From Nitrospirota bacterium (lineage in GTDB: Bacteria > Nitrospirota > Nitrospiria > Nitrospirales > Nitrospiraceae): a DNA stretch of 64,000 nucleotides. The DNA lies in NCBI GenBank assembly GCA_020027965.1, contig JAHRHE010000001.1, positions 3,704 to 67,703 of the forward strand. The letters run 5' to 3'. A model generated the notes under the pieces. It was not told the DNA's origin, did no database searches, and worked only from the letters and a program-made list of their open reading frames with translations. Position 1 is the first letter of the stretch; every line of letters starts with the position of its first letter. Below, in pieces: positions 3,190 to 55,384 of this stretch. Both the position numbers and the translations under genes were made by a program.

Positions 3190-3216
3190 AGCTATCAGCC
3201 ATAGGCCATCAGCTCC
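3190..3216. repeat. period-7 tract (CCAT family)
   Basis: agctatc agccata ggccatc agctcc, between the sthA stop and the THI5-like start. Confidence 0.7.
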
Positions 3217-3220
3217 CGGC

Positions 3221-4648
3221 TCAGTGCCCGGGTTGGGGCTCCGTGCGGTCGGCCGCCGGCCATGGACGCGGCATCCGGTTGATACCGTCCAAGGCCGCCA
3301 CCCGGTAGCATTCGGCGAGGGTCGGGTAGTTGAAGACCGTCTCGATGAAGTAGTCGATCCTTCCGCCAAAGGCCATCACTGCCTGCCCGATGTGGATCAG
3401 CTCCGTCGCGCCGTCCCCGATGGCGTGCACGCCCAACAGGTGGCGTGTTCGACGGTCGAAGAGCAGCTTCAGCATGCCGATCTCGTCGCCGATCAATTGC
3501 CCGCGCGCGATCTCGCGGTACCGCGCGATGCCCACCCCGTAGGGGACGTCGGCTTTGGTGAGCTCCTCCTCGTTGCGGCCGACCATGGAGATCTCGGGGA
3601 TCGAATAGATCCCGTATGGGAGCAGATGGATCTCCGTTTCGCAGGGGAGACCGAACGCATGGCAGGCTGCGTGGCGACCCTGCTGCATCGAGGTGGAGGC
3701 GAGCGCCGGAAAGCCCACGATGTCCCCCGCCGCGTAAATGTGGGGGACCTCAGTCTGGAAGTTCTCGTTCACGCGCAGCCGTCCCCGCTCGTCCGGCTTG
3801 ATGCCGACCGCCTCGAGATGGAGACCCTCGGTATTCCCCATGCGCCCGGCCGAGTACATGAGCGTGGAGGCCGTCACCGGCTGGCCGCTTTTCAGATTGA
3901 CCGTCACCTGACCGTCGGACGATTTCTCAATCGACACCACTTCTTCATTCAGGCGGAGCGTCACGCCGATCTCACCCATCTGGTATTGGAGGGCCTCGAT
4001 GATCTCGGTGTCCACGAACTCCAGCAGCCGTGGGCGCCGCTCCACCAGCACGACCTTCAGTCCCATGGTGGCGAGGATCGAGGCGTATTCGCAGCCGATG
4101 ACGCCGCCGCCCACGATCGTGAGGGACGTGGGAAGACGCTTGAGGGTCAGCAGGCCGTCGGTGTCGATGATGTGCTCGTCGTCGAAGGGAATGTGTGCGG
4201 GCCGCGCCGGTTTCGTGCCGGTGGCGATGACAATGTAATCGGCCGTGTGTTCGATCGTCCCCGTCGCGGTCCGGATGGCCAGGCGGTGGGGGTCACGAAA
4301 GGCGGCACAGCCTAAGATCAGATCCACATGGTTGCGCGCCATCTGGTTTTCGATGATCTCGATCTCGTGCTTCACCACGTGGTTGCAACGAAACGCCAGG
4401 TCCTCCATCGTGATGTCCTGCTTCACCCGGTAGCTGGCCCCGTAGAGGCTGCGTTGCCGGAACCCGGACAGATAGAGGACGGCCTCGCGGAGGGATTTGC
4501 TGGGGATCGTGCCGGTGTTGATGCAGACTCCGCCGACCGCCAGCTTCTGCTCGATGATCGCCACCCGCTTGCTCAGTTTGGCCGCCTGGACCGCGGCCTT
4601 CTGCCCGGCAGGGCCGGTGCCGATCACGAGTATGTCGTAATGAGCCAT
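3221..4648 (-). CDS. sthA: soluble pyridine nucleotide transhydrogenase (SthA/UdhA-type flavoprotein)
   Basis: 475 aa. MAHYDILVIGTGPAGQ FAD fold, GGVCINTGTIPSKSLREAV, second Rossmann IVGGGVIGCEYAS, C-terminal dimerisation domain. Confidence 0.85.
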   Translation of the reverse strand: MAHYDILVIGTGPAGQKAAVQAAKLSKRVAIIEQKLAVGGVCINTGTIPSKSLREAVLYLSGFRQRSLYGASYRVKQDITMEDLAFRCNHVVKHEIEIIENQMARNHVDLILGCAAFRDPHRLAIRTATGTIEHTADYIVIATGTKPARPAHIPFDDEHIIDTDGLLTLKRLPTSLTIVGGGVIGCEYASILATMGLKVVLVERRPRLLEFVDTEIIEALQYQMGEIGVTLRLNEEVVSIEKSSDGQVTVNLKSGQPVTASTLMYSAGRMGNTEGLHLEAVGIKPDERGRLRVNENFQTEVPHIYAAGDIVGFPALASTSMQQGRHAACHAFGLPCETEIHLLPYGIYSIPEISMVGRNEEELTKADVPYGVGIARYREIARGQLIGDEIGMLKLLFDRRTRHLLGVHAIGDGATELIHIGQAVMAFGGRIDYFIETVFNYPTLAECYRVAALDGINRMPRPWPAADRTEPQPGH

Positions 4649-4665
4649 CCTTCTTCCTTCGGAAG

Positions 4666-4746
4666 AAAGGTTAAGGTCGAGGCCGAGGTTGAGGCTCAGG
4701 CCGGCGCCACGAAATCTTTCCTCAACCTAAACCTTAGCCTTAACCT
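4666..4746. repeat. period-7 inverted arm pair (GGTTAAG/GTTGAGG family)
   Basis: Left arm aaaggttaaggtcgaggccgaggttgaggctcagg, right arm cctcaacctaaaccttagccttaacct. Same vocabulary as 55305-55384. Confidence 0.85.
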
Positions 4747-4759
4747 GTGCCTTCCAGCG

Positions 4760-5422
4760 TCAGCCCGCGGCGAGCGACCGCGCGGCCTTGAAGGCCGCGT
4801 CCATGTCCGGCATTTGGGCCAGCTCGGGCGTGATCTGCAGATATTTAATCACATTATCCTTGTCCACGACGAGAACCGCGCGCGCGAGGAAATGGGGGTC
4901 TTTCACCAGCAGCCCGTAGGCCTTCCCGAAGTCGCCACCGCGGAAGTCAGACAGGAAGGTAATATTCTTAATCTTGGCTTCCTTGGCGAAGCGGCCCTGG
5001 GCGAACGGCGTGTCCACGCTGACGGTGATGAACTCCACGTTCTTGTCGAGCCCGTTGTTCTTCTCGCTGAGGTAGTGCGTCTGTTGTTCACACACCGTGG
5101 TATCCAGCGAGGGGACGACACTGATAATCCGCACGGTCCCCTTGGTGTCCGCGATGTTGACTAAGGTCAGGTCTCCCTTGGCCACCTTGACGTCCCGGAG
5201 CTGATCGCCGACTTTGATCCCCGGTCCCTCCAGGGCCAGGGGAGAGCCCTTGAAGGTGACGCTGTGGCCGTCGCCGGCCGTGGCGCTCCCGTTGGCGACC
5301 GGCAGGTCCTTGTACATGAATCCCTTCTCGGCGCCCATGCCGCCCAGGTACTCACAGCCGGTGATGGCGAGGAGGGCCGCCACCCCCGCCGCAACTGTGA
5401 TGCGATGGTGATGTGCAATCAT
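4760..5422 (-). CDS. tpx: thiol peroxidase (Tpx, atypical 2-Cys peroxiredoxin) with lipoprotein signal
   Basis: 220 aa. VVPSLDTTVCEQQTHYLSEK peroxidatic Cys motif. N-terminal lipobox LLAITGC. Confidence 0.85.
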   Translation of the reverse strand: MIAHHHRITVAAGVAALLAITGCEYLGGMGAEKGFMYKDLPVANGSATAGDGHSVTFKGSPLALEGPGIKVGDQLRDVKVAKGDLTLVNIADTKGTVRIISVVPSLDTTVCEQQTHYLSEKNNGLDKNVEFITVSVDTPFAQGRFAKEAKIKNITFLSDFRGGDFGKAYGLLVKDPHFLARAVLVVDKDNVIKYLQITPELAQMPDMDAAFKAARSLAAG

Positions 5423-5501
5423 GTGATCCTCCCTTCGTCAGAGCTATATGAATGGCCTGACTGACGGGCCCTCGGGTCGTACGGACTGTATGCTCGTGCG
5501 G

Positions 5502-6455: not shown

Positions 6456-8402
6456 CTACTCCAACTGGACGAGGGTCTCGTCCGTCTTCACGTCTTCACC
6501 CTCCGTGACGTAGACGGCCACGACGGTCCCGTCAACCGAGGCAGGCACCCGGCTTTCCATCTTCATGGCTTCGATGATCAGCACGGGATCGCCGGCTCGC
6601 ACGCGGTCACCCTTCGCGACCAGCACCTTGACCACGCGGCCTGGCATCGGGGAGGCCACATCGCCCGGCTTGGCGGGTTTCGGGCGCTTCGGGACGTTCG
6701 GGCTTCCGGTTTCCGGGGCTTCCGGGACCCCCGCCAGGACCTCGTGGATCGGCTCCAGGTGCACTTCCTCCAATTTGTCGTTGACCCGGATGTAATAGGG
6801 CTTGCGCCCCTCCTTCTTCCGGCCTGATCCGGACACGCGAATATGATAGGACTCGCCGTGGACGGTGACGTTGAACTCGACCGGTGCCAGATGAAGCTCG
6901 TGGGCGACCGCCGGCCCTGCTTCCGGTGGAGGCTCCAGTTGTTCCGGCTTCAGTTCGCCGCGCGCTCGCTCGTCAAAGAACTCGCGGGCGATGGCCGGAA
7001 AGAGCGCGAACGAGAGCTGGTCTTCGGGCGACGTGACGACTCCGGACAACTCCTGTGTGATCCGTTCGAGTTCCGGCTCGAGGCGATCCGCCGGCCTGCC
7101 CTTTACCGGTTCTTCGTCTCCGATCGCCCGGGCGGCCACGTCAGGATCGAGGGGTCCGGGGGGCCGACCGTACAGCCCGAGGAAGTAGTTCTTGGTTTCG
7201 TTCGTGATCACCTTGTACCGCTCGCCGGTCATGACGTTGAGCGTGGCCTGGGTGCCGACGATCTGGCTGGTGGGGGTGACCAGCGGGGGGTAGCCCATGT
7301 CCTTCCGAACCTGCGGGACCTCCTCCAGCACCTGCTTCATCTTATCCAAGGCCTTCTGCTCGGCGAGTTGAGCCGCCAGGTTGGAGAGCATCCCCCCGGG
7401 AATCTGGGAGATGAGAATCTCTGCATCCACCCCGGTGAAGTCACTCTCGAACTGATGGTATTTCCTGCGCACTTCCCGAAAATGCTCCGAGATCGGTACG
7501 AAGGTGGGCAAGTCCAGCCCGGTATCATACGGCGTGTTCCGGAGCGCCGCCACGAGCGTTTCCGTGGGCGGATGGGACGTCCCGCCGGCCAACGGAGAGA
7601 TTGCGGTATCGAGCATGTCCAGCCCGCCCAGAATTGCCATCAGGGCCGACATCGAGGCCATCCCGGAGGTGTAGTGGGTGTGCAAGTGAATCGGGACCCG
7701 CACGGCGGCTTTCAATTTCTTCACCAACAGGTAGGCGTCCATGGGCGCCAAGAGACCGGCCATGTCCTTGATACAGAGGGTGTCGGTGCCCAGGTCCTCC
7801 AATTGCCTGGCGAGTGCGACGAAGCGGTCGAGGCTGTGGACCGGGCTGAGCGTGTAGCAGAGGGCCGCTTCCACGTGCCGGCCGCAAGCCTTCGCCGTCT
7901 GCATGGCCCGCTCCATATTCCGCACGTCATTGAGCGCATCGAAGATTCGGAACACGTCGATGCCGTTGAACGCCGCGCGCTCGATGAACCGATCGAGCAC
8001 ATCGTCCGGATAATGCCGGTATCCCACGATGTTCTGCCCGCGCAGAAGCATCTGCAGCTTGGTGTTCGGCATGGCGGCACGGAGCGCCCGGAGGCGTTCC
8101 CAGGGATCTTCCTTGAGGAAGCGCAGGCAGGTGTCGAACGTCGCGCCGCCCCAGACCTCCAGCGACCAGTAGCCGACGCGGTCCAGCTTCTCGGCGATGG
8201 GGAGCATGTCCTCCGTGCGCATCCGAGTCGCCAGGAGAGACTGGTGGCCGTCCCGCAGGGCCACGTCCGTGATCAGGAGCCGCTTAGGCGGCGCCGCCTC
8301 AATGTCAAGCGGCGGCGCCCCCGCCTTCTTGCCAACCCACGCCGGCTTCTCTTTCCTTGGCGGTTGCGGCTTCTTTCCCTTTAGAATTCTTTCACGCTTC
8401 AC
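6456..8402 (-). CDS. pycB: pyruvate carboxylase subunit B (carboxyltransferase + biotinyl carrier domain)
   Basis: 648 aa. ITDVALRDGHQSLLATRMR, HLHTHYTSGM, C-terminal biotinylation motif IEAMKME. GTG start lies inside a heptamer tract. Confidence 0.85.
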   Translation of the reverse strand: MKRERILKGKKPQPPRKEKPAWVGKKAGAPPLDIEAAPPKRLLITDVALRDGHQSLLATRMRTEDMLPIAEKLDRVGYWSLEVWGGATFDTCLRFLKEDPWERLRALRAAMPNTKLQMLLRGQNIVGYRHYPDDVLDRFIERAAFNGIDVFRIFDALNDVRNMERAMQTAKACGRHVEAALCYTLSPVHSLDRFVALARQLEDLGTDTLCIKDMAGLLAPMDAYLLVKKLKAAVRVPIHLHTHYTSGMASMSALMAILGGLDMLDTAISPLAGGTSHPPTETLVAALRNTPYDTGLDLPTFVPISEHFREVRRKYHQFESDFTGVDAEILISQIPGGMLSNLAAQLAEQKALDKMKQVLEEVPQVRKDMGYPPLVTPTSQIVGTQATLNVMTGERYKVITNETKNYFLGLYGRPPGPLDPDVAARAIGDEEPVKGRPADRLEPELERITQELSGVVTSPEDQLSFALFPAIAREFFDERARGELKPEQLEPPPEAGPAVAHELHLAPVEFNVTVHGESYHIRVSGSGRKKEGRKPYYIRVNDKLEEVHLEPIHEVLAGVPEAPETGSPNVPKRPKPAKPGDVASPMPGRVVKVLVAKGDRVRAGDPVLIIEAMKMESRVPASVDGTVVAVYVTEGEDVKTDETLVQLE

Positions 8403-8427
8403 GCTTTACGTCTCACGCTTCACGGGT
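8393..8427. repeat. period-7 tandem tract (CACGCTT x5)
   Basis: cacgctt cacgctt tacgtct cacgctt cacgggt spans the pycA-pycB junction and the pycB start codon. Confidence 0.85.
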
Positions 8428-9848: not shown

Positions 9849-10109
9849 GGGTCAGGATACCTCTCGTCGGATCGCTGGATCGCTGCCGAGTGGACCGGAA
9901 CTCGATTTGCCAGGCTCAGGAATCCGTGTAACGTATCACAGCGTTTGGAGTGTTGTCGAGCGGGCACACGGCCGCACGGGCGGGTCAGTCGCTGGCAAAC
10001 GAGGAGGGGTGCCGAGGAGGGAGCGTCACGCACGCGAGATGGGGCCGATTCTGGCGAGCGAGGGGGCCATGAGCGGGCCCCTCGCGCGGAATGCTGTTCG
10101 CCGAGTCGG

Positions 10110-12087: not shown

Positions 12088-12264
12088 ATGTCGGTCCTGA
12101 TACGGAAGTACAAACTGGCGACGGGGCTGGTCAAGGAAGAGCGAATTGATGAGCCGGATCGGATCGACCGTTACATGGGGCTGTTCGAGAAGGAGGACAT
12201 CAAGAAGCTCCGGGCCGGCCAGAAGGTGTTCATTGAAAAGGACGAGTGGCAACTCCTGCCGTAA
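12088..12264 (+). CDS. small hypothetical protein (58 aa)
   Basis: ATG 12088 is preceded by gaaggagg at 4-5 nt. No family recognised. Confidence 0.45.
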   Translation: MSVLIRKYKLATGLVKEERIDEPDRIDRYMGLFEKEDIKKLRAGQKVFIEKDEWQLLP

Positions 12265-12276
12265 CCCCTCCGGGAA

Positions 12277-12351
12277 GGCAAAAGTAAAAAATCAAAGGGC
12301 AAAGTAACCATCCTATCACTCCTCACTTTTTACCTTTTACTTTTTGTTTTG
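12277..12351. repeat. period-7 inverted arm pair (A-rich GCAAAAG/TAAAAAT family)
   Basis: Left arm ggcaaaagtaaaaaatcaaagggcaaagtaa, right arm cactttttaccttttactttttgttttg. Confidence 0.85.
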
Positions 12352-12358
12352 TCTCTTC

Positions 12359-12562
12359 ATGGTCTACTGGGTTCACATTGCACGCTCGATCGACCGGGCG
12401 ATGCTCCATCGTGAGCGCTGTGCCGAGGTGCCCTCGAATTTTACACGGTCGGATTTCTGGGAAGGGGGCTGGTTCGATTACCCCGACAAGGAACGAGCCT
12501 TGGCGGCCATGGAACAATCGGGCGCCACCCTCCAGAAGATGTGCCCGCTCTGTAAGCCGTAA
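12359..12562 (+). CDS. small hypothetical Cys-containing protein (67 aa)
   Basis: MVYWVHIARSIDRAMLHRERCAEVP...MCPLCKP. Coding-like composition; no family recognised. Confidence 0.45.
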   Translation: MVYWVHIARSIDRAMLHRERCAEVPSNFTRSDFWEGGWFDYPDKERALAAMEQSGATLQKMCPLCKP

Positions 12563-12630
12563 CCGGCAGGCCAAGGCCCGCCGCGTGACGCGTTTAACAG
12601 AAAGAGGGAATTTGTTTCAAAGCTTTTGAA

Positions 12631-12660
12631 CCCGTCACTCGTCACCCGTCACCGGTCACG
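12631..12660. repeat. period-7 tract (GTCAC family)
   Basis: GTCAC at 12634, 12641, 12648 and 12655, just upstream of the EamA-like gene. Confidence 0.85.
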
Positions 12661-12668
12661 AATTTACC

Positions 12669-14059: not shown

Positions 14060-14074
14060 TTATGACCCCTTTCG

Positions 14075-14153
14075 GAATGCAAAAGTAAAAATTCAAAATG
14101 CAAAAACGCTGGCAATGAACTTTTTCATTTTGCATTTTTAATCGTTCATTGCC
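14075..14153. repeat. period-7 inverted arm pair (A-rich family)
   Basis: gaatgcaaaagtaaaaattcaaaatgcaaaaacg ... ctttttcattttgcatttttaatcgttcattgcc. Nested ggcaatgaac/gttcattgcc. Confidence 0.85.
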
Positions 14154-14298
14154 TTACACGTGGTTCCGCAGCATGAGCTCTTTTGGATGTGGGTTCAGAT
14201 AGACCTGATGCTCGATGTAGGCGACTTGAAACGACCGGACGTAGTGCTCGATCAGGGTGAGGGGCACGATCGGTCCTTTCAGAGGTCAGCGGGACAAT

Positions 14299-14328
14299 TT
14301 GACACCTTCTTCGCAGAACACTTAGAAT
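14299..14328 (+). promoter_or_regulatory. candidate sigma-70 promoter of hemE (TTGACA-18-TAGAAT)
   Basis: TTGACA 14299-14304, TAGAAT 14323-14328. The hemE ATG at 14338 is only 9 nt past the -10 box and has no SD. Confidence 0.5.
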
Positions 14329-15363: not shown

Positions 15364-15370
15364 CTGTGGA

Positions 15371-15476
15371 GCTGATGGCGTAAGGCATATGGCATATAGT
15401 ATGCAGTCTACGGACAAGAGCCGATGTGCGTTTGAGTTTGCGCCTGGCCATTCGCTATTAGCCATAAGCTATTCGC
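15371..15476. repeat. period-7 inverted arm pair (ATGGC/GCCAT family)
   Basis: gctgatggcgtaaggcatatggcatatagtatgc ... ggccattcgctattagccataagctattcgc, in the hemE-hemH spacer. Confidence 0.85.
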
Positions 15477-15488
15477 TCTGGTGAGACT

Positions 15489-18616: not shown

Positions 18617-18777
18617 GGCGTGATCCGTTACGCGTGATGCGTGGGGGGATCGTGGTTAGTGGGCAGCGAACACTGGTCAGTGGTCAGGGGAAAGTGGTTG
18701 GGGGTTGGTGGTCGGTGGGTAGGTAAGAGATGGAAGCACTGAGAACAGACGACTGAGAAGAGAGAACTGAACAGTAA
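18617..18777. repeat. 23 consecutive heptamers in strict register (CGTGA -> GTGGT -> ACTGA words)
   Basis: Hand-registered: ggcgtga tccgtta cgcgtga tgcgtgg ggggatc gtggtta gtgggca gcgaaca ctggtca gtggtca ggggaaa gtggttg ggggttg gtggtcg gtgggta ggtaaga gatggaa gcactga gaacaga cgactga gaagaga gaactga acagtaa. Confidence 0.9.
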
Positions 18778-23696: not shown

Positions 23697-26071
23697 TGCC
23701 TGAGCGATTTGATCTTCCCGAACCGAACGTGAAGCGTCTCAGCCCCGCCAGGCCGCTCGCCGGGGTGCCGGCAACGACCAAGAGCCTCCAGAAGGAAGGG
23801 CCGCTTCAGGGTAACGCCGTTCGCCAGGACGATGAAGTCACTGCAGAATTTGATCGTCGCGGGTTGCACTGGCGGCCGGTCTGGACGGTGTTGCTGTTGC
23901 TCGTGCCCTGCCTCGCCCTCACCGTCTATTATCTCTTCTCTTCCCAGGTCATCACGCCCGGCAGCAGCGAGTCGGAATCGTTGCTGCCGAGTGCGAGCTA
24001 CGCGTTCGTCCTGCTCCTCCTCAATCTGGATCTCATCGGACTGGTGGTCCTGAGCCTGCTGTTGTCCCGCAGCCTGATCAAGGCGTACTTCGAACGACGG
24101 CACCGCCTGATGGGATCAGGTTTCCGAGCCAAGCTGGTCGCTGCGTTTATCGGCTTTTCGTTGATTCCGACCGTGCTGCTGGCGCTCGCGGCCAGCGGCA
24201 TCGTGAACAAGGCCGTGGATGTCTGGTTTAACGATCAGGTCGAGAAGGTGCTCAAGGATTCTCATGAAGTGGCTCGCATGTTTCGTGAAGGGCACCTTGC
24301 ATTGGCGATGAACAGTGCTCGAGCGATCAGCCGCGAGATCTTCCGGGAGGACCTGTTGACCCCGTTGCAGCGTGATCTCCTCGTCGCCGCCATGGCCAGA
24401 AAGCGGGCCGAGCACAACCTTGCCGGAGTCACGGTGTTTTCTTCGAAGATGGAAATCCTGACCAAGGCGCTGGATCCGACCGTACCGGCCACGGTGCTCG
24501 ATCTGCCCAGTGGGCAACTGGTGTTGCAGGTGTTGAGCGGGAACAAGGAACTCTCCTCGGTGCAGGAGGCTCAGAGCGGCCGTCTCGTCCGTGCAGGGGT
24601 CGCCATCACATCGAATTCCCGGCGGGGGGAAGTGGGCGGGGTGGTGGTGGTGGATGACTATGTGCCGGAGTCTCTGCTTGCCAAGATGGAGGGCATTGAG
24701 AAGCAGTACACGGAATACCGACAGATCAAAGCGATGAAGAATCCGATCAAAGCCGGAGCCTATTTGTTCGTCGCCGTGATTACGGTCATGATTCTCTTCG
24801 GGGCTACCTGGTTCGGTTTCTATGTGGCGCGTGGCATCACGGTTCCGATCCAGCGATTGGCCGAAGGGACCGAGGCGGTCGCGCACGGTGATCTGAACGT
24901 GAAGATCAAGGTCAAGGCGACGGATGAGATCGGCACGCTGGTGGATTCCTTCAACCGGATGACGGAGGACCTGAAGTCGAGCAAGTCGAAGGTGGAGGAG
25001 GCCAATATATCGCTCCGGCAGTCAAACTTGGAGCTGGATCGTCGCCGCGCCTATACCCAGGCCGTGGTGGACACGATTGCGTCCGGGGTGCTCTCGATAG
25101 ACCGGGCCGGTATAGTCACCACGGTCAACCCTTCGGCGGAGCGTATTCTGGGCGTGTCCGGCGAGCGGCTCCGAGGCCGGCCGGTCGCCGAGGCCTTCAA
25201 GGAGTTGGGACTGGACCTCTTCCAGAATGCCTACGACAAGATGCTGGCCGAACGGATGGACAGCGTATCGCTGGACGGCACGATGGAGGTCGGGGATAAG
25301 TTTCTGACCATCGGACTGCACTTGTCGCACATGCGCAATGAGGCCGGCCGCGATCTCGGTTATGTGCTGGTCTTCGAGGATCTCACAGAATTGATCAAGG
25401 CACAGAAAGTCGCCGCCTGGCAGGAGGTGGCCCAGCGGATTGCGCACGAAATCAAGAATCCGCTGACCCCGATTCAACTGTCGGCCCAACGGCTGAGAAA
25501 GAAGTTCTTCGAAAAGTCCCCCGACTTTGACGGCGTCTTCGAGGAGTCCACCAGCGTAATCGTCAACGAGGTCGGCAGCCTCAAGCGAATGGTGGACGAA
25601 TTCTCGAAGTTCGCGCGCATGCCGGCACCCCAGCTGGCGCGAGAGTCGCTGGCCGAGGTGATCCAAGAGGTCGTGGCGCTCTATCGTGGCGCTCACCGGG
25701 ACGTGGAGTTTCTCGTGGATCTGGATGAGACGCTTCCTCCGGTGAACCTGGATCGCGAGCAAATCAAGCGCGTGCTCGTCAATCTCTTCGACAACGCCAT
25801 CCAGGCGATGAATCAGAAGGGGCGGCTCTGGATTACGAGCACCTTTGATACGCGGTTGCGCCGCGCTCTGGTCAGCGTGGCCGACGAAGGGGTGGGGATC
25901 AGTCCGGAGGACCAGGAGCGAGTTTTTGTCCCGTTCTTTTCCAAAAGGAGGACCGGCACCGGACTCGGCCTGGCGATCGTCCACCGGATCATCACGGATC
26001 ATGAAGGCCAGATCCGGGCCAGCAGCAACAAACCCAAGGGGGCGATCTTCACGTTTGAACTACCGGTGTAG
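23696..26071 (+). CDS. ntrY: NtrY-like sensor histidine kinase (TM-HAMP-PAS-HisKA-HATPase)
   Basis: 791 aa. H-box AHEIKNPLTPI, N-box LFDNAIQAM, G-boxes DEGVGI / GTGLGLAIV. ATGA overlap with the upstream gene. Confidence 0.8.
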   Translation: MPERFDLPEPNVKRLSPARPLAGVPATTKSLQKEGPLQGNAVRQDDEVTAEFDRRGLHWRPVWTVLLLLVPCLALTVYYLFSSQVITPGSSESESLLPSASYAFVLLLLNLDLIGLVVLSLLLSRSLIKAYFERRHRLMGSGFRAKLVAAFIGFSLIPTVLLALAASGIVNKAVDVWFNDQVEKVLKDSHEVARMFREGHLALAMNSARAISREIFREDLLTPLQRDLLVAAMARKRAEHNLAGVTVFSSKMEILTKALDPTVPATVLDLPSGQLVLQVLSGNKELSSVQEAQSGRLVRAGVAITSNSRRGEVGGVVVVDDYVPESLLAKMEGIEKQYTEYRQIKAMKNPIKAGAYLFVAVITVMILFGATWFGFYVARGITVPIQRLAEGTEAVAHGDLNVKIKVKATDEIGTLVDSFNRMTEDLKSSKSKVEEANISLRQSNLELDRRRAYTQAVVDTIASGVLSIDRAGIVTTVNPSAERILGVSGERLRGRPVAEAFKELGLDLFQNAYDKMLAERMDSVSLDGTMEVGDKFLTIGLHLSHMRNEAGRDLGYVLVFEDLTELIKAQKVAAWQEVAQRIAHEIKNPLTPIQLSAQRLRKKFFEKSPDFDGVFEESTSVIVNEVGSLKRMVDEFSKFARMPAPQLARESLAEVIQEVVALYRGAHRDVEFLVDLDETLPPVNLDREQIKRVLVNLFDNAIQAMNQKGRLWITSTFDTRLRRALVSVADEGVGISPEDQERVFVPFFSKRRTGTGLGLAIVHRIITDHEGQIRASSNKPKGAIFTFELPV

Positions 26072-26077
26072 CAGAGC

Positions 26078-26176
26078 CGTGACGAGTGACGGGTGACGAG
26101 TGACAGGTGGGCTGCGGAAATGAATCCCAGGAGCCTTCCTGCAAACGCGTCACGCGTCACGTGTCACCCATCACGA
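26078..26176. repeat. period-7 inverted arm pair (GTGAC...GTCAC)
   Basis: GTGAC at 26079/26086/26093/26100. GTCAC/ATCAC at 26149/26156/26163/26170. ntrY-ntrX spacer. Confidence 0.9.
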
Positions 26177-26183
26177 GGACCGA

Positions 26184-27750: not shown

Positions 27751-29115
27751 ATGGGTGACAAAATGCTCACCGTCACGATCGAGAAGCTGGTGCAGGGGGG
27801 GCGGGGATTGGCCCGTCACGACTCGCAGGTCGTGTTTGTGCGCGGGGCGATCCCTGCGGAGACGGTCTCGATCACAGGCGGTGCGCACCATAGGGGGTTT
27901 CAGGACGCCGCGGTGAGCGGCGTCCTGGTTGCCTCGCCCGACCGGGTGACGCCTCCCTGTCCGGTCTATGAAGTCTGCGGGGGCTGCCAGTTGCAGCATA
28001 TCCGGTACGAGGCCCAGCTCGCCTACAAGCGGGATATGCTCAACGAAACGTTGATGCGAGTCGGCAAGGTGACAGTAGACAGCCTTCCTCCGGTCATTGC
28101 CTCTCCGGAGCCCTATGGATACCGCAGCACGGTGCGTTTCGTGGTGTTCCGTCAGGGGAGCGGGTTCGCGTTCGGGTTTCACCGGGAGGGTACGAACGAG
28201 ACGGTGGCGGCTGCCGGCTGCTTGCTCGTTCCTGAAACCACCCGTGAAGTCGTCGCCAGACTGAGCGAACGGCTGGCCAGCCAGGGCAAGCTGCCGCTCC
28301 GACTGGAGACCGTAGAAATCAGGCGGTCGGTGGCGTTCGGCTCCGTGCTGGTGATCTATCGGGTCGGGCCTGCAGATCGCCAACGTGCCTGCCGACTCTT
28401 CGAGGTGTTTCGGGATATCCCCGGTGTGATCGGGCAGGTGGTGACGACAGCCGAAGGCAAAATGAAAAATGTAAAAGTTAAAATTGACTCTCCAGGACAA
28501 AGGGCAGGCAGCGGACAACAGATGTACAGGCGGCAACGATGGGTACAAGGGCAGGATTGGATTGCAGACCGGCTGGATGACCTGATCTTCCGGATCAGCG
28601 ATCGGTCATTCATACAGGCCAATTGGCCATTGAATGGGGCGCTCTCCAATACCGTCACTGAGTGGGTAGGACCATCGGAGGGTCGGCGTGTCCTGGAGCT
28701 GTACGCCGGGATCGGCACCCTGGGCCTGCCCCTGGCGCGCCGCGGCGCGCTGGTGACGGAAGTGGAGGCGAATCCCTACGCGCTGGCCGACGCGCGGCAT
28801 GCGGCCAAAGTTAATCACATCGGACGTTGCCGCTTCCGTCCTGTGCGGGCCGAGACGATGCTGCAGGCCACGCAAGCCGGTGAGTACGAGGTGGTCATCG
28901 TGGATCCGCCACGGACCGGGCTGAGTCAGGACTGCGTGAAAGAGTTGCTGCGGATCGGAGGAGAACGGTTGCTGTATCTCTCCTGCGATGCTCCGACGCT
29001 GGCGAGAGACCTGGGTCGGCTCTGTGGGGGCGGCTACCGGATCACCCGCATCCAAGCGTTCGACATGTTCCCCCAGACCGCGCACCTCGAGACGCTGGTC
29101 GAGTTGGTCCGCTGA
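27751..29115 (+). CDS. RumA/RlmD-family 23S rRNA (uracil-5-)-methyltransferase (TRAM + Fe-S + SAM MTase)
   Basis: 454 aa. TRAM-like N-terminus, CPVYEVCGGCQLQH cluster, FIQANWPLN, ELYAGIGTLG, VIVDPPRTG, LLYLSCDAPTLARD. Carries an odd A-rich insertion at 28456-28555. Confidence 0.8.
   Translation: MGDKMLTVTIEKLVQGGRGLARHDSQVVFVRGAIPAETVSITGGAHHRGFQDAAVSGVLVASPDRVTPPCPVYEVCGGCQLQHIRYEAQLAYKRDMLNETLMRVGKVTVDSLPPVIASPEPYGYRSTVRFVVFRQGSGFAFGFHREGTNETVAAAGCLLVPETTREVVARLSERLASQGKLPLRLETVEIRRSVAFGSVLVIYRVGPADRQRACRLFEVFRDIPGVIGQVVTTAEGKMKNVKVKIDSPGQRAGSGQQMYRRQRWVQGQDWIADRLDDLIFRISDRSFIQANWPLNGALSNTVTEWVGPSEGRRVLELYAGIGTLGLPLARRGALVTEVEANPYALADARHAAKVNHIGRCRFRPVRAETMLQATQAGEYEVVIVDPPRTGLSQDCVKELLRIGGERLLYLSCDAPTLARDLGRLCGGGYRITRIQAFDMFPQTAHLETLVELVR
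28456..28555. repeat. intragenic period-7 A-rich tract plus flanking direct repeat
   Basis: ggcaaaa tgaaaaa tgtaaaa gttaaaa (28456-28483). acaaagggcagg (28497-28508) and tacaagggcagg (28544-28555). Confidence 0.75.
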
Positions 29116-29218: not shown

Positions 29219-29230
29219 CCTACCCCTAAA

Positions 29231-29260
29231 CGCTTCACACTTCACGATTGACGGTTCGCA
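29231..29260. repeat. period-7 tract (TTCAC family) in the purM leader
   Basis: cgcttca cacttca cgattga cggttcg. Confidence 0.7.
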
Positions 29261-30947: not shown

Positions 30948-30960
30948 CTTTCAGGCACCA

Positions 30961-31046
30961 GGACTGAGCACTGAGTGCTGAGTGTGAAACCACTCGGCTG
31001 ACCTTCCGAAAAGACCTCAGTCCTCGAACCTCAGTCCTCAGCACTG
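30961..31046. repeat. period-7 inverted arm pair (ACTGAG/CTCAGT family)
   Basis: ggactgagcactgagtgctgagtgtgaa ... cctcagtcctcgaacctcagtcctcagcactg. Confidence 0.85.
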
Positions 31047-31313: not shown

Positions 31314-31580
31314 GTTCCGGTAGTCTCTTACCCGTGAGTTGTGTATAATTCGGAGGCGATATTAGGTGCGAGCGCCGACCTTTCTCCCCGTCTCCTCCGC
31401 GGCCATCTCGCCACGGCACTCCCGCTGTGGCACTTCCCGCGGTCAAGAAGCTCCGGCGCTCGCGTTTTTCTTGTCCGCGCCTTAGCTGTGAGACAGTCGC
31501 CAGCAGCTCTTGGCTTCCGGCCATCGGCTCTCAGGTCTTTGCTATAAGCCATCAGCCATATGCTCTTCTCTTCGACGGGT

Positions 31581-33639: not shown

Positions 33640-33723
33640 CGTACTGCACCGTGCTTCGTTCTGAGTTCGAAGCGTTCAGTTGTCAGCTTAACTCAACACT
33701 CATAACCCAAATCTCATGGCTGC

Positions 33724-39207: not shown

Positions 39208-39226
39208 TCTTTGGGCCTCCTCTGAA

Positions 39227-39331
39227 GAATGGTTAATGGTCAACGCAGAAATGGTCGATGATCGAAATCCTCATCAACCATAACGCATTAACCATCGGCC
39301 ATGTCCCCACATCCATCAGCCATCAACCGTT
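39227..39331. repeat. period-7 inverted arm pair (ATGG/CCAT family), gspF-gspE spacer
   Basis: gaatggt taatggt caacgca gaaatgg tcgatga tcgaaat cctcatc aaccata acgcatt aaccatc ggccatg tccccac atccatc agccatc aaccgtt. Confidence 0.85.
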
Positions 39332-39338
39332 GTCTTGT

Positions 39339-40564: not shown

Positions 40565-40725
40565 CATGGTTCTATGGTCAATGGCTGATTGATCTGGGAA
40601 CATGGCTGATGGTTAATGGTCCATGGTTGACGAGGATCCAGATCATCAACCATTTCCGCGTTGACCCTTGACCACTTCTTCTTCAGGGACCATTGACCAT
40701 TAGCCATTCACCATTATCCATTCTG
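40565..40725. repeat. 23 heptamers in register forming a long inverted arm pair (ATGG...CATT)
   Basis: catggtt ctatggt caatggc tgattga tctggga acatggc tgatggt taatggt ccatggt tgacgag gatccag atcatca accattt ccgcgtt gaccctt gaccact tcttctt cagggac cattgac cattagc cattcac cattatc cattctg. Confidence 0.9.
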
Positions 40726-40726
40726 C

Positions 40727-41491
40727 TTATGGGATCACTAACTGCTGGCCGATTAGGATCAGATCGCCGTGCAAGCCATTGGCGCTTTTTAGTTGCTCCA
40801 CGGTGAGGCCGTGCCGGCGTGCGATGGTCCAGAGCGAGTCACCTGCACGAACCTGGATGCTCAGCGGGCGGGTCGCTGAGGGAGCCGGCGGGTCGGTCAA
40901 GGACGCCGGTCGTACCACGGCCGGGGGTGTCCATAGGCTGCCGGTCGGCGTGTCGGGTCCGGTTCTCCGTTTGCCAGGTGGCTTGGCGAGTTCCCGCTTC
41001 ACCTGGGTCAGTTCCACGGTCAGCGTGGCCACTGCTGATTCCAATTCCGCCAACCGGGTCTGCATCATCGTGGCCGCAGGCTCGTCCTCGCTGGCCTGGC
41101 TGGGCAGGGACGGTGAGTCGGCAACTTGACCCGTGGTCCCTGTGCTGGCCTGAAGGAGCCGGTCTCGCTCATCTCGCAGCAGAGCCAATCCCGCTTGCAC
41201 GCTCTCGATCTCTTGAAGTTGCGCCGCCCGCGCCTGGCGGAGCTCGGCTGCCGCCTGACTCAGCTCCGCAATCTGGCGGCGCAGGTCCTGTATCTCCGCT
41301 TCCTTCTTGGCCGCACCAATCCGCGTGGCGGCCAGGTCCTGGCGGAGCGCGGCCACCTCCGCATATGAATCCCGGACCACCTGATCCGCCTGGCGCCGGG
41401 CCGCCTCGACCTCGGGTCCGGGCCAGGCGGTCCGGTCGGTCGTACAGCCCGAGACCAGCAGGCCGAGCACCAACAGAAAAAACGTGCCCAT
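40727..41491 (-). CDS. coiled-coil lipoprotein with C-terminal LysM domain
   Basis: Start at MGTFFLLVLGLLVSGC (lipobox). Long coiled coil. LysM: IQVRAGDSLWTIARRHGLTVEQLKSANGL...IGQQLVIP. Confidence 0.7.
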   Translation of the reverse strand: MGTFFLLVLGLLVSGCTTDRTAWPGPEVEAARRQADQVVRDSYAEVAALRQDLAATRIGAAKKEAEIQDLRRQIAELSQAAAELRQARAAQLQEIESVQAGLALLRDERDRLLQASTGTTGQVADSPSLPSQASEDEPAATMMQTRLAELESAVATLTVELTQVKRELAKPPGKRRTGPDTPTGSLWTPPAVVRPASLTDPPAPSATRPLSIQVRAGDSLWTIARRHGLTVEQLKSANGLHGDLILIGQQLVIP

Positions 41492-41501: not shown

Positions 41502-41915
41502 CTATAACTCGTTATAGGGGATCCCATCCGTACCGACCAAGTCGCTGCCGCTGTGCACGTCGAACACGCCGCCCTCCGCTTCATCCAGAATTTCCTGCCA
41601 CGTACTGTCGGCCTTTGTAAACGGGTCCAGCGGAATCCGCTTGACGTACCCGGCTGACTTCAGGTCGGCCAACGTGGGCGGGTAGGACCCGCGGTCTGCG
41701 CGATGCTGATCAATGGCGTCCCGCAAGGTGAACAGGTTCTGTTTGAGTGCCGCCTCCCTGGCCCTGACGATCGATTGCTGGAAGGAGGGTTCCGCTAACG
41801 AGACCAGGATCCCGGCGATCGTCACCACGATCATGAGCTCTGCGAGAGTGAACCCTCCTTGGCTCCGCCAGTGGCGAGAGGTGATGGGCGATGGGCTAGA
41901 GGGAAGACCTTTCAT
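41502..41915 (-). CDS. gspG: type II secretion major pseudopilin GspG-like
   Basis: Prepilin motif QGG/FTLAELMIVVTIAGILV (Gly-1, Phe+1, Glu+5). GspG-like ...GSYPPTLADL...YVKRIPLDPF. Confidence 0.8.
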   Translation of the reverse strand: MKGLPSSPSPITSRHWRSQGGFTLAELMIVVTIAGILVSLAEPSFQQSIVRAREAALKQNLFTLRDAIDQHRADRGSYPPTLADLKSAGYVKRIPLDPFTKADSTWQEILDEAEGGVFDVHSGSDLVGTDGIPYNEL

Positions 41916-42004
41916 CTCGTACGTGCGTCTCGAAGATTGCTCTGTGTACGTCCTACCCATAGCCTCGTACCTCTTGCCCTTGCCTCATGCCGGCGCGAAT
42001 GCGC

Positions 42005-42562
42005 CTACCACTCCCGATACTTCGACTTGTCAAGTGCGACATCGGGACTCTTGGAATACACGTCGAACACGTCTTCCCCGCACCAATCTTTGGCATCGGG
42101 CGGGTCCTGATAACACCGCAGGCCCCATTCCACCGTGCCCGTCATGGGATCGAGCGGGATGCGTCTCAGATAACGCCGGATCGGTTTGGTCTCACGGACC
42201 GTGGCTTCACCTCCGCTCAGATCGACGCCAAGCAGCGTCTTGAGCGACTTCGGATAGCCGGTGACGCCGGTGTATTCCTTACAGGACGTCTTGTTCTTCA
42301 CGCACAGGGGGCCTGTCAGGATCTCACCGTCTCGCGCCCAGTCCACCTTGAACTGATCGATGGCGGTGCGCATCTCCCGCAACCGCTGCCGCAGCTCCAA
42401 CTCCTGAGATCGTTGACTGCTGTACTTCGAGAGCGGAGTGGCCACTGACGCCAGGACGAGCACGATCGTGACAGTGACCAGCATTTCCAGCAAAGTCACG
42501 CCACGCTCAGAAGCCGTGACGCGTGACGCGTGAAGCGTGAAGCGAAGGAACCTTCGCATCAT
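42005..42562 (-). CDS. second GspG-like pseudopilin (larger, Cys-containing)
   Basis: Start at MMRRFLRF. ERG/VTLLEMLVTVTIVLVLA (Glu+5), ...YLRRIPLDPMTG. The leader peptide is encoded by a heptamer tract. Confidence 0.7.
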   Translation of the reverse strand: MMRRFLRFTLHASRVTASERGVTLLEMLVTVTIVLVLASVATPLSKYSSQRSQELELRQRLREMRTAIDQFKVDWARDGEILTGPLCVKNKTSCKEYTGVTGYPKSLKTLLGVDLSGGEATVRETKPIRRYLRRIPLDPMTGTVEWGLRCYQDPPDAKDWCGEDVFDVYSKSPDVALDKSKYREW

Positions 42563-42636
42563 TGACTCAAACCCGTCACTCGTCACCCCTCGACTAGGCT
42601 CGGGGTGACCCTGAGCCCGTCGAAGGGTCACGCATC
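42514..42636. repeat. period-7 tracts (GTGAC/GTGAAG ... GTCAC) plus a palindrome gaccctgagcccgtcgaagggtc
   Basis: ccgtgacgcgtgacgcgtgaagcgtgaagcgaagg (42514-42548, coding), cccgtcactcgtcacc (42572-42587), palindrome 42607-42629, cacgcatcacccatcac. Confidence 0.85.
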
Positions 42637-42650
42637 ACCCATCACTGTCC

Positions 42651-47748: not shown

Positions 47749-47967
47749 ATGCGGCAGCAGCAGGGTCGCCGGGTACGAAGGGTCTGGTCACGGACGCAGG
47801 TGATGGCCGTCGCGGTTGTGCTTGGGTGGGCCGGGTTCTGGGGTTGCGCAGGCGATCCGGGGCCGGCTCCGGTCGAGCCGACCCTGCAACAGATCCGCAG
47901 CGACTCAGACGTGCACTTCGAGAAACTGAAACAGGAAGAGAGGGAGCGGGGCACCACCAACCCGTAA
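47749..47967 (+). CDS. small lipoprotein (72 aa)
   Basis: ATG 47749 has aaggagg 5 nt upstream. ...VVLGWAGFWGC lipobox. Confidence 0.55.
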   Translation: MRQQQGRRVRRVWSRTQVMAVAVVLGWAGFWGCAGDPGPAPVEPTLQQIRSDSDVHFEKLKQEERERGTTNP

Positions 47968-48021
47968 GCAAATGGCAAATGGCTTATGGTTAATGGCTAA
48001 TGGGTCCTTTAACCATTCTGG
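47968..48021. repeat. period-7 tract (AATGG family) with a short inverted partner
   Basis: gcaaatg gcaaatg gcttatg gttaatg gctaatg gg ... ttaaccattc. Confidence 0.85.
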
Positions 48022-48026
48022 GGTCA

Positions 48027-50802: not shown

Positions 50803-50880
50803 GCGTCACTCGTCATGCGAAGGAAGACTCCGCGAATCACGGTTCACGAATGACGGATGACGAATAACGAATGACGCGTC
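50803..50880. repeat. period-7 tracts (GTCAC / ATGACG family)
   Basis: gcgtcactcgtcatgcg ... cgaatca cggttca cgaatga cggatga cgaataa cgaatga cgcgtc. Confidence 0.85.
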
Positions 50881-50886
50881 TTGGCC

Positions 50887-54182: not shown

Positions 54183-54263
54183 TCCACTCTCGTCTTTTTC
54201 TCAGCTGTGCGTCCGCGCCCCTCTCCCTTAGGTCTCGGATGAAACGGATGCGCGGGGGACCGC

Positions 54264-54523
54264 GGCCAGGCTGCCTCCTGTGTTCGCGCGTCGCGACCCG
54301 TTGCAACGAAGTGCAACGGGTCCCCCGGCACTCCATCCACCTTCTCACAAGACCCGGTGGCTTGGCTGACCCCAATTGCGCGCGTCGAGCGAGCACTCTA
54401 TCTACCTAGGCCCGGACCCAATAAGTCATGAGTGCGCGCTCCGCGAGCAGGCGGGTCAGCCAGGCCACCCGGCTCCCCCCGTTCTTGTGTGCGCGACGCG
54501 CGAACACAGGAGGGAGCCTGGCC
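54264..54523. repeat. 260-bp nested palindromic element; contains copy B (54377-54449) of the 73-nt core
   Basis: Outer arms 54264-54295 / 54492-54523 are complementary at 31/32. Inner hairpin 54295-54322. Arms ccggtggcttggctgacc / ggtcagccaggccacccgg flank the core. Confidence 0.85.
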
Positions 54524-54570
54524 GACTGGCCCATCCTTGAGCCGTGCGCCGCTCGTCGGCTGAGACGCCC

Positions 54571-54849
54571 TTACTTCTTCTGCGGCACCAGCAATTTATC
54601 TCCCTTGCGGAAGACGGCGTAGATGGCTTGGGAAGGACAGGCGTCGAGGCAGAGGCGACAGGATTCCAGGCAACGCGACGAGTCGAACTTGAACGGCGGC
54701 GTGGATAGCCACGCGCCGGTCGGGCAGACCGGGATGCAGACGGCATTATGCGTGCAGCGGTCGGGATGACGGACGAGGTGATCGCGTGTGACCATCATGG
54801 GCTTGATTCCCTCAAACAGGGCTCGCGAGAACATTTCCAGCATGTTCAC
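54571..54849 (-). CDS. small Cys-rich ferredoxin-like protein (irregular 4Fe-4S motifs)
   Basis: 92 aa. CTHNAVCIPVCP and CLESCRLCLDACP. Confidence 0.55.
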   Translation of the reverse strand: MNMLEMFSRALFEGIKPMMVTRDHLVRHPDRCTHNAVCIPVCPTGAWLSTPPFKFDSSRCLESCRLCLDACPSQAIYAVFRKGDKLLVPQKK

Positions 54850-54875
54850 AACGGGACATCCTTGCTTCTACTCGC

Positions 54876-55289
54876 TCACTTCCACTCGTCCACCAGTCGG
54901 CGCAGGCGATCCTTGAGCTCAGGAATCTGCTCCAGATTGTTTTGGATCGCTCCGAGAATCTTCTCCAGACGCGCCGCGCGCAGCGCTTCTTTGTCCTGGC
55001 GGACTAATCGATCGTATTCGGTGTAGGCCTTCGGGTGCTTGGGTTCCAGGACCGTGCGGGCAGCTCCCAGAGCCTCGGTCAGTTCCCAAGGCTCGGGCGC
55101 CAGGGGAGGAGCCACCGCGAACGATCCGTCGGAGAACACGAGCACTGCCGCCCCGGGTTTCGACGGCAAAGGCGCGACGGCCTCGATCGTCTTTCCTTGT
55201 GCCTGCTCCCAGGCCATGGCCAATCCCGGGAATTGTTTCATGAAAGCCACCTTCTCTTGGTTGGCTTTCCACTTCTCTTCAACCGGCAT
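54876..55289 (-). CDS. hypothetical protein (137 aa)
   Basis: Uninterrupted ORF between two Fe-S protein genes. No family recognised. Confidence 0.5.
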   Translation of the reverse strand: MPVEEKWKANQEKVAFMKQFPGLAMAWEQAQGKTIEAVAPLPSKPGAAVLVFSDGSFAVAPPLAPEPWELTEALGAARTVLEPKHPKAYTEYDRLVRQDKEALRAARLEKILGAIQNNLEQIPELKDRLRRLVDEWK

Positions 55290-55304
55290 AGCGACTCTCT
55301 TTCA

Positions 55305-55384
55305 GAAAGGTTGAGGTTCAGGTTAAGGTCGAGGGTAGTCGAATGCCTTACTCATCCGGCCTTTTGCCTCAACCTGAGCCTTTC
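55305..55384. repeat. period-7 inverted arm pair (GGTTGAG/GGTTAAG family)
   Basis: gaaaggttgaggttcaggttaaggtcgaggg ... gcctcaacctgagcctttc. The right arm overlaps the ferredoxin stop codon. Confidence 0.85.

Follow-up and report, generated by a model that had tools for sequence, protein, structure and literature searches.

The STRR sequences of heterocystous cyanobacteria, reportedly described by Mazel et al. in 1990, are said to be tandem heptanucleotides of several word families whose function is not known. Their words include CCCCAGT, TTGGTCA, and CAACAGT, and the repeats are mainly direct and often near perfect. The extragenic hairpins of the REP/BIME/REPIN class occur in many dispersed copies between co-directional or convergent genes. 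Each REP family has one conserved consensus of 20 to 40 nucleotides (nt), an associated RAYT transposase, and no internal 7-nt periodicity, and REP elements act on mRNA stability and polarity within operons. Here, we describe imperfect period-7 tandem repeats, many of them arranged as hairpins, in a 64,000-nt stretch of a Nitrospirota genome (family Nitrospiraceae; contig JAHRHE010000001.1, positions 3,704 to 67,703; referred to here as the window) and in related loci. These elements are repeats of the same kind as STRR and the Xanthomonas repeats introduced below, in a many-worded, fast-turnover form and in another phylum.

Rehm et al. (2015, PLoS One; PMC4692102) described intergenic heptamer repeats with the words GGGAATC in Xanthomonas and GGGGA(C/T)T in Nostoc. 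Their 7-nt units have a conserved core and variable positions, and an array typically has about four units. The repeats are 89 to 93% intergenic, mostly between co-directional genes, near the end of the upstream open reading frame (ORF), and rare between divergent genes. A Xanthomonas genome contains 70 to 75 convergent (inverted) pairs, which are potential stem-loops. Most of the repeats are transcribed, and even close species differ widely in repeat length and sequence. No function was found; G-quadruplexes (G4) were proposed, and in vitro G4 data are available for GGGAATC (PMC4692102). A Nostoc preprint also regards the role of heptamer repeats as still not worked out. As recounted in two later papers (PMC4679880, PMC4692102), the survey of Mrazek, Guo, and Shah (2007) ranked heptanucleotides first in abundance among long simple repeats in many prokaryotes, and polymerase slippage was proposed as their origin. 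In marine Beggiatoaceae, some cyanobacteria, and Bacteroidetes, TAACTGA direct repeats end a few nucleotides ahead of start codons, with one indirect set among 170 (MacGregor 2015; PMC4679880). Elements made of four or five tandem heptanucleotides are on record for Geobacter metallireducens, where the MTYCTGA-class sites have been drawn as two-strand loops (PMC2700814). Literature searches on Nitrospira and such repeats found no report.

Period-7 tandem repeats crowd the gene spacers of the window

An earlier note, made from the sequence of the window alone, had claimed that runs of imperfect heptamers occupy most same-strand spacers, often as inverted arm pairs. We called genes via their third-position GC content and called a tract wherever at least 15 of 21 positions matched at lag 7. 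This threshold scan found 23 period-7 tracts summing to 874 nt, against 0.6 to 0.9 on average, and never more than 4, in block shuffles. Periods 5, 8, 9, 10, and 11 gave 0 to 3 tracts, and period-6 tracts were mainly coding. Although only 21% of the window is noncoding, 18 of the 23 period-7 tracts are mostly noncoding. Tandem Repeats Finder (TRF) returned 17 period-7 rows, two-thirds of which lie at or adjoin coordinates given in the earlier note, and every place cited there carries a tract of the words that it named. The words were also plain to see when each spacer was split into blocks of seven. Lag-7 identity in spacers of 30 to 400 nt was 0.336, versus about 0.27 at lags 4 to 6 and 8, and these spacers exceeded shuffles at both lag 7 (z = 11.8) and lag 14 (z = 6.2). 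Coding DNA had a period-3 signal alone. The excess of lag 7 over neighboring lags and over shuffles that the note had anticipated was present in the spacers of the window, and a lag-7 excess was also present in those of the related loci. Positions within the unit varied unevenly, with a core of 4 to 5 nt kept (Stouffer z = 7.1, 51 tracts).

The note had also raised the possibility that the tracts are artifacts, which contigs from three JGI metagenomes dismissed. A contig of metagenome 3300027324 is 100% identical to positions 38356 to 41382 of the window, and one of 3300027954 is 99.9% identical over 36378 to 41214; each includes in full both hairpins that flank pilC. A contig of 3300009814, 100% identical over 38645 to 40565, includes the hairpin at 39208 to 39338 in full, whereas the other spacer is represented by its first 21 nt. 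Because these sequences recur in three separate assemblies, the tracts are not assembly artifacts. These results confirm that period-7, and at times period-6, imperfect tandem repeats crowd the gene spacers.

Some details of the earlier description had to be adjusted. A strict register of 23 units was found at 18617 to 18777 but is only loosely true at 40565 to 40725, where the tiling slips by one base within the first arm and the span consists of an arm, a loop, and an arm. The words GGTTAAG/GTTGAGG (4666 and 55305), presented as one of five heptamer families, really represent a hexamer, AGGTTR.

Tracts follow genes and often pair into G-first hairpins

In the window, tracts were found in 12 of 22 co-directional spacers, 2 of 3 convergent spacers, and none of 6 divergent spacers. 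Over all loci of the clade, the corresponding counts were 31 of 83, 4 of 13, and 3 of 20, and the proportions of nucleotides within tracts were 19%, 12%, and 3%. The lag-7 z score was 14.5 for co-directional and convergent spacers together and 1.0 for divergent spacers. The tracts thus sit in spacers downstream of a gene and not in promoter-only spacers. As for the claim of "most" same-strand spacers, the threshold gives 55% (12/22), or 13 spacers when 39244 to 39338, which it missed, is included. Paired elements start 0 to 17 nt past the upstream stop codon. They extend to the Shine-Dalgarno (SD) sequence of the next gene in short spacers and hug the stop codon in long ones (12265-12668 and 14060-14337). 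Some single C-rich arrays immediately precede start codons.

The pattern of a tract followed by its reverse complement, reported in the earlier note for many spacers, was borne out in part: many elements can fold as imperfect hairpins of 25 to 50 bp, but about a third of the tracts are unpaired and unfolded. Five hairpins were more stable than dinucleotide shuffles of their sequences, with z scores from -5.3 to -2.7 (Table 1). The fold test showed no structure for the single arrays within 3159-3220, 18640-18780, 47950-48026, and 55290-55368. Many stems are phased with the repeat, so that helices of 5 to 8 bp alternate with roughly one mismatch per unit, as at 26072-26183 in the window and at L035:1-95, L003:6325-6457, and L002:1987-2060 in other loci (L numbers designate loci of the comparison set).

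All 13 of the automatically paired elements have the order G-rich and C-poor array, loop, C-rich and G-poor array, and five control loci from Xanthomonadales have the same G-first order. Reverse complementation leaves this order as it is, so the order characterizes the element and not the gene direction. The rule is restricted to periodic pairs. A purine-first polarity over all spacer structures was rejected as not general (A5 226 versus U5 304; G5 556 versus C5 480). Separate homogenization of the two arms was rejected as well, with unit identity within arms (0.59/0.61) equal to that between arms (0.60; 13 pairs); L035:1-95, which has perfect (GGCGAGG)x4 and (CTATCGC)x3 arrays, is alone in clearly showing arm homogenization.

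A class of GC-rich hairpins with the opposite order was also observed, in which a C-rich arm comes first and the loop is short (..CCCCTCTCCCC..GGGGAGAGG..). These hairpins recur in spacers of the clade: at 29116-29190 in the window, L001 1070-1131, L033 324-457, and L045 8485-8544 and 14614-14741.

The repeat elements do not correspond to known RNA families. At the gathering score, Rfam 15 matched just the two tRNAs in the window. Stem-loops with a U tract were at chance in positions 1 to 60000 (14, 15, and 17 found versus 15.6, 13.3, and 13.3 expected), and none coincides with a full repeat stem; two short stems fall in the loop of 26072-26183 and in 50803-50881. Canonical intrinsic terminators seem to be rarely used in this organism. 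These findings agree with the view, expressed in the earlier note, that the elements are not classic terminators. They are also not CRISPR, being contiguous words of 6 to 7 nt without spacers, and they have no single REP-like consensus, with only pairwise paralogs of 82 to 84% identity.

The repeats mark a Nitrospirales subclade and turn over rapidly

The closest relatives of the PilC (T2SSF) protein, at 63 to 90% identity, came from metagenome-assembled genomes and metagenome contigs, and those that are labeled belong to Nitrospirales or Nitrospiraceae. About 240 kb of DNA from these relatives had a spacer lag-7 identity of 0.301 (z = 7.8), with 1 to 6 tracts per 10 kb in most loci. Four other Nitrospira-type loci (Nitrospira sp. 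Kam-Ns4a, Nitrospira sp. M1, WLXC01, and a 328-kb scaffold) had no period-7 tracts in 85 kb. The existence of tract-free Nitrospira-type loci and the uneven density within the clade indicate that the trait is confined to one Nitrospirales subclade, in which its distribution is patchy. Outgroup loci from Lysobacteraceae (Xanthomonadales) carry GGGAATC-type G-first inverted arrays immediately upstream of pilC (L011, L023, L059, L063, and L065, at about 9825 to 9995).

Orthologous spacers keep the periodicity and the architecture of the elements but not the word, which answers a question posed in the earlier note. The pilC-pilB spacer contains a hairpin in about 17 of 22 relatives, built from different words: GGTTTGT in L001, L045, and L047; GGGGTAA in L035, L042, and L044; AGGTTR in L005, L036, L037, and L041; AATGGYY in the window, L003, and L046; and TCAAGTC in L002. 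In L034, the site is occupied by an ordinary nonperiodic inverted repeat. Coding DNA of the window and L033 is about 85% identical over 21 kb, and the BLAST alignments end at every spacer; no common sequence was found between the orthologous spacers of these two loci. A comparison of empty-site with filled-site junctions between them was abandoned, the divergence of the spacers being too great to define junctions.

Exchange of whole hairpins was visible among closer relatives. Four contigs of one species (L034 to L037), 96 to 99% identical overall, have three unrelated hairpins at the pilC-pilB site. The flanks of this site are 99% identical between L035 and L036, and the spacer is 40% identical; between L035 and L042, which belong to different species, the flanks are 84% and 76% identical and the spacer is 93% identical. 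In the L035 comparisons, similarity changes abruptly, no more than about 8 nt from the stop codon and right at the ATG, and a second spacer shows the same behavior. Within one hairpin allele, near-identical strains (98 to 99%) differ in length by single units only, as in the gain or loss of TCAACC between L036 and L037 and of GAGGTT between L042 and L044. Such clean one-unit changes are the signature of replication slippage and directly support one of the two generators suggested earlier; the other, templated extension, was not directly supported. More than in-place slippage is at work, however, as the cassette-like sharing of whole hairpins between species shows.

Whole hairpins have also been copied to other spacers. 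Positions 40581-40666 and 39238-39323 are 83.7% identical over 86 nt in opposite orientation, and 12264-12303 and 14065-14104, which cover the leader and the first arm of the A-rich elements, are 82.5% identical. In L081, at 0.1% divergence (99.9% identity), both hairpins are unchanged. As a separate observation, pilC is bracketed by the inverted copies of the approximately 86-nt element, 1.2 kb apart, which could in principle mediate inversion of the gene.

Elements of the window and their surroundings

Ordinary operons of housekeeping genes surround the elements; they comprise thiamine genes, the subunits of pyruvate carboxylase, hemE-hemH-hemY, purM-purN, an NtrY/NtrX-like pair, and the operon of a type IV pilus (Table 1). 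The in-frame tract at 28449 to 28488 encodes a lysine-rich stretch immediately ahead of the catalytic domain of the methyltransferase and looks like a repeat array that was taken up into a protein linker.

Table 1. Period-7 and period-6 repeat elements of the window. Fold z scores are relative to dinucleotide shuffles, with the folded region in parentheses where it was given; MFE, minimum free energy.
Positions	Strand	Element	Context and properties
2141..2174	-	TATGGCG x3 array	Overlaps last codons of THI5-like gene (identified via Pfam NMT1); TRF period 7, 100% matches
3168..3213	-	Single array, GCTGATG/GGCCTAT type	Immediately precedes THI5-like start (3158); lacks a partner arm; z = -0.4 (3159-3220)
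4664..4753	-	AGGTTR hexamer hairpin, period 6	Spans spacer from stop codon to SD; TRF period 6/18; MFE -49.1, z = -4.1 (4649-4759)
8388..8425	-	Single CGTGAAG array	Separates genes for biotin carboxylase and carboxyltransferase (Pfam)
12275..12358	+	A-rich then T-rich array, weak hairpin	Starts 10 nt past stop codon; paralog of 14075-14151
12625..12665	+	Single C-type array, CGTCACN	Ends 4 nt ahead of EamA start codon
13553..13593	+	GTCACGC array	Makes up last codons and stop of EamA; TRF 95% matches
14075..14151	+	A-rich/T-rich hairpin	15 nt past stop codon; followed by promoter-like site 14299-14328 for hemE
15369..15479	+	ATGGC / GCCAT arrays	hemE-hemH spacer; long outer stem within MFE structure, yet z about 0
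18619..18777	+	About 23 consecutive heptamers, words CGTGATN, GGTNNGT, and ACTGAGA in turn	No inverted partner; reaches start codon at 18781; z = -1.6
26071..26177	+	GTGACGR / GCGTCAC hairpin	Between NtrY-like kinase and sigma-54 response regulator; three 6-bp helices, a single mismatch closing each; MFE -54.5, z = -5.3 (26072-26183)
28449..28488	+	A-rich heptamer-like tract	In frame within tRNA (U5) methyltransferase gene; reads ..EGKMKNVKVKID..
29222..29260	+	Single C-type array, CTTCACN	Probably 5' untranslated region, as it lies between promoter-like site 29190-29218 and purM start
30952..31042	+	ACTGAGN / CTCAGTN hairpin	4 nt past purN stop codon; z = -2.7 (30948-31049)
31508..31570	+	Single C-type array, GCCATNN	10 nt ahead of tRNA-Ala
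33645..33723	-	Weak period-7 tract and short hairpin	Pilus-operon spacer; z = -1.85
39208..39338	-	ATGG / CCAT hairpin	pilC (T2SSF)-pilB (T2SSE) spacer; inverted paralog of 40565-40728; z = -4.4 (39208-39338)
40565..40728	-	ATGG / CCAT hairpin	LysM gene-pilC spacer; identical in independent assemblies; z = -3.1 (40580-40726)
41860..42004	-	GAGGC/ATGGG and GCCCATC arrays	AGGC word family common to relatives; z = -1.3
42493..42649	-	Composite structure, GTGACGR and CGCTTCA/CGCGTCA arrays	Past secretin stop codon; MFE -82.4
47962..48009	+	AATGGCT array	Convergent spacer
50803..50881	+	GCGTCAC and GACGAAT arrays	Convergent spacer
55304..55337	-	Single AGGTTR hexamer array	TRF; period 6

Other repeats in the window and its relatives

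Several further repeats were noticed. The last 26 nt of tRNA-Ala(CGC), at 31631-31656, are repeated exactly at 31777-31802, 146 nt downstream, and the copies enclose a pair of GC-rich hairpin-like repeats (31680-31703 and 31712-31735); an integrated element may have had its att site here or left a scar. The 3' end of tRNA-Pro(CGG) with about 30 nt of downstream DNA (57506-57555) is duplicated at 57664-57713, with 100% identity and 158 nt away. Beyond this duplication lie 69-nt repeats at 57716-57784 and 57836-57904 (88%), with four copies of a 35-nt motif, so that the block downstream of the tRNA-Pro gene is tandemly reiterated.

An aperiodic dispersed repeat of about 110 nt occurs in unlinked noncoding stretches at 1310-1418 and 54340-54449 (82.7% identical), and a 43-nt piece (86%) occurs at a third stretch (19418-19460 and 54286-54325). 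This repeat is unrelated to the heptamer tracts and could be a small mobile element or small RNA family. Positions 1 to 1460 of the window have a GC content of 0.54, compared with 0.62, and no ORF there passes the codon-position GC test. Among the relatives, L042 has a 105-nt in-frame tandem duplication (1867-1971), corresponding to 35 codons of a coiled-coil-like gene, that is absent from the 98 to 99% identical strains L044 and L041.

Comparison with described repeats

The earlier note had named STRR as the only analog, but the Xanthomonas GGGAATC repeats share the layout of the window elements and are also present in our Xanthomonadales control loci. Tandem 7-nt units, a conserved core, mainly co-directional placement near the end of the upstream ORF, rarity between divergent genes, and G-first inverted pairs are common to both. 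The differences lie in the host, which is Xanthomonas there and a member of the phylum Nitrospirota here; in vocabulary, where one dominant word with a GGG run contrasts with 8 to 10 unrelated words, including one hexamer family; and in turnover, since the cassette-like replacement and sharing of hairpins between species seen here are not described there. Most window words, such as GTGACGN, AATGGNN, ACTGAGN, and CAAAAGN, have no GGG run. With STRR, the window elements share tandem heptamers of several word families in noncoding DNA near genes. The word GTGGTCA (about 18670-18690) matches STRR2 TTGGTCA at six of seven positions and is the sole resemblance seen; the host differs, and G-first inverted intercistronic pairing lies outside the STRR definition.

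Other systems are more distant. The class surveyed by Mrazek et al., as it is presented in the later papers, shares the period-7 noncoding excess, the sporadic phylogenetic distribution, and slippage, but it was defined statistically on perfect or near-perfect repeats and, in those accounts, comes without inverted arms, polarity, or cassette turnover. The array at 18737-18777 (ACTGAGA..ACTGAAC) is similar to TAACTGA repeats in word and placement, although those have a single word and are nearly all direct, whereas the elements here have many words and are mostly paired. The Geobacter metallireducens elements share the multicopy tandem-heptamer build, but they are of fixed length, have one consensus per family, occur also inside genes, and have been interpreted as regulator sites. 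Like REP/BIME/REPIN elements, the window elements are extragenic hairpins, but they lack a common consensus and have a 7-nt periodicity.

Origin and possible role of the repeat hairpins

We favor, with moderate confidence, the explanation that the elements are repeat hairpins, grown by slippage and open to copying, which lie in transcribed spacers and either function or are tolerated there as RNA stem-loops. Arrays would expand by replication slippage and would spread by copying or recombination. A stem-loop that brings a stop codon and the next start codon together might be harmless or mildly useful within an operon, and the elements would persist for this reason. By analogy with REP/BIME elements in Escherichia coli, it could serve as a barrier to 3' exonucleases or as an attenuator that tunes operon expression, protecting the upstream message or attenuating read-through. 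One mismatch per unit might keep long stems from being perfect palindromes or substrates of RNase III. The G-first order might ensure that the C-rich arm is paired once it is made, so that Rho would get no loading site. The generating process is partly resolved, as slippage together with copying and replacement, and the function of the hairpins is one that we infer.

Several observations weigh against this explanation. The pilus-operon spacers of the four Nitrospira-type loci are only 9 to 36 nt long and free of repeats, so the hairpin is dispensable, and the window and L033 agree only in part as to which spacers hold tracts. Single arrays without a fold make up about a third of the tracts, and one pair of elements sits in both orientations within one operon. 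A polarity that reverse complementation does not alter is, taken alone, no sign of transcription. Antisense folds were no worse than those of sense transcripts (20 versus 28 spacers, sense versus antisense), and there is therefore no strand-specific RNA signature. Any role at the RNA level is one that we infer, and the lack of a sense-strand folding advantage, combined with dispensability in relatives, suggests a weak function at best. In addition, the sharp cassette boundaries, no farther than about 8 to 14 nt from the stop codon and the ATG, are unlike those of ordinary homologous recombination, which keeps a mobile-element or templated mechanism in play.

The elements could instead be miniature mobile DNA, that is, nonautonomous hairpins resembling REPIN, MITE, or PATE elements that a dedicated enzyme with its gene elsewhere in the genome, such as a Y1/RAYT-type transposase, moves in single-stranded form, with slippage secondary. 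We regard this as unlikely, though it would account for whole-element paralogs in neighboring and unlinked spacers in either orientation, for a hairpin that is 93% identical across species with flanks of 76 to 84% and switches at the stop codon and ATG, for three alleles at one site in strains of 97 to 99% identity, and for a few word families common across the clade. However, neither the window nor some 300 kb of clade DNA, a small sample that was searched by tblastn with a Y1_Tnp query, yielded a transposase or RAYT gene; the sole Y1_Tnp gene seen belongs to a repeat-free genome (L078). Conserved termini, target duplications, and a family-wide consensus are lacking, the copies found in this sample are few and of low identity (82 to 84%), and the elements are unchanged at 0.1% divergence. 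Somewhat less probable still is neutral mutational debris, in which a quirk of replication or repair in the clade would favor 7-nt slippage and the arrays would build up under weak selection and have no function. Unit indels, rapid turnover, poorly conserved occupancy, absence of the trait from other Nitrospira-type loci, and arrays that spill into gene ends, one of them in frame inside a gene, are all in keeping with it, as is the prevalence of heptanucleotides, with slippage proposed, that PMC4679880 and PMC4692102 relate for many prokaryotes. Slippage alone, however, makes neither inverted partner arrays nor an invariant G-first order (13/13). It also leaves unexplained the starts of paired elements right past stop codons, the sharing of whole hairpins between species, and the emptiness of divergent spacers of similar length (0/6; lag-7 z = 1.0 versus 14.5).

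A role in ending transcripts deserves consideration, since canonical terminators no commoner than chance imply that the organism must end its transcripts otherwise. In such U-tract-independent terminators or pause sites, the G-rich arm would pair with the newly made C-rich arm and strip or stall the transcript. The elements lie right past stop codons, including those of convergent spacers and ahead of promoter-like sites (12275 and 14075), and their polarity is identical for polymerases arriving from either side. We nevertheless consider this improbable: many elements are inside evidently cotranscribed operons (hemEHY, purMN, and pilus), where full termination would be harmful, and relatives run the same pilus operon with spacers of 9 to 36 nt. 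Least probable of all, to the point that we would be surprised to see it upheld, is that the arrays are sites for one protein contacting nucleic acid every 7 nt, as suggested in the earlier note, or G4 elements. Variation in the units is concentrated at set positions around the retained core, but that pattern also arises when mutated units are duplicated. It is difficult to see how a single protein contacting every seventh nucleotide would accommodate at least 8 to 10 unrelated cores (AGGC, GTGAC, ATGG, ACTGAG, AAAAG, GGTTTG, GGGGTAA, and AGGTT), the swapping of unrelated cores at orthologous sites, and one family of period 6. A G4 is possible for GGGGTAA, GGCGAGG, and the G-rich stretch at 18640-18725, in line with the in vitro data on GGGAATC (PMC4692102), but most words lack runs of three G's and are unable to form one, which weakens the G4 explanation.

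Beyond slippage-grown hairpins that are copied and tolerated or used as RNA stem-loops, a broader idea can be put forward, which we hold only tentatively and think unlikely to be correct in full. The elements might be miniature modular cassettes of 6- to 7-nt words running from stop to start codon, grown by slippage and moved from spacer to spacer and from species to species by a dedicated mechanism, with the G-first order imposed cotranscriptionally. The movers could be single-strand hairpin transposition or template-switch copying, and the cotranscriptional constraint could be avoidance of Rho or hairpin-driven release.

Implications

In practical terms, the spacers of this clade cannot be aligned between relatives, are hard to assemble, and are easily misannotated as ORF extensions. 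More broadly, an excess of heptamers has been on record since 1990 in cyanobacteria, 2007 in a survey, and 2015 in Xanthomonas, without an accepted function or mechanism. The clade described here is a natural experiment on this problem, with many words, one architecture, an invariant G-first order, hairpins that vary at one site among near-identical strains but recur in other species, and tract-free Nitrospira-type loci outside it. It makes two questions testable: what generates and moves the arrays and whether the hairpins act on transcripts. If the elements were indeed modular cassettes moved by a dedicated mechanism, the system would also take in the period-7 repeats known from Xanthomonas and from cyanobacteria, as cases with a single word.

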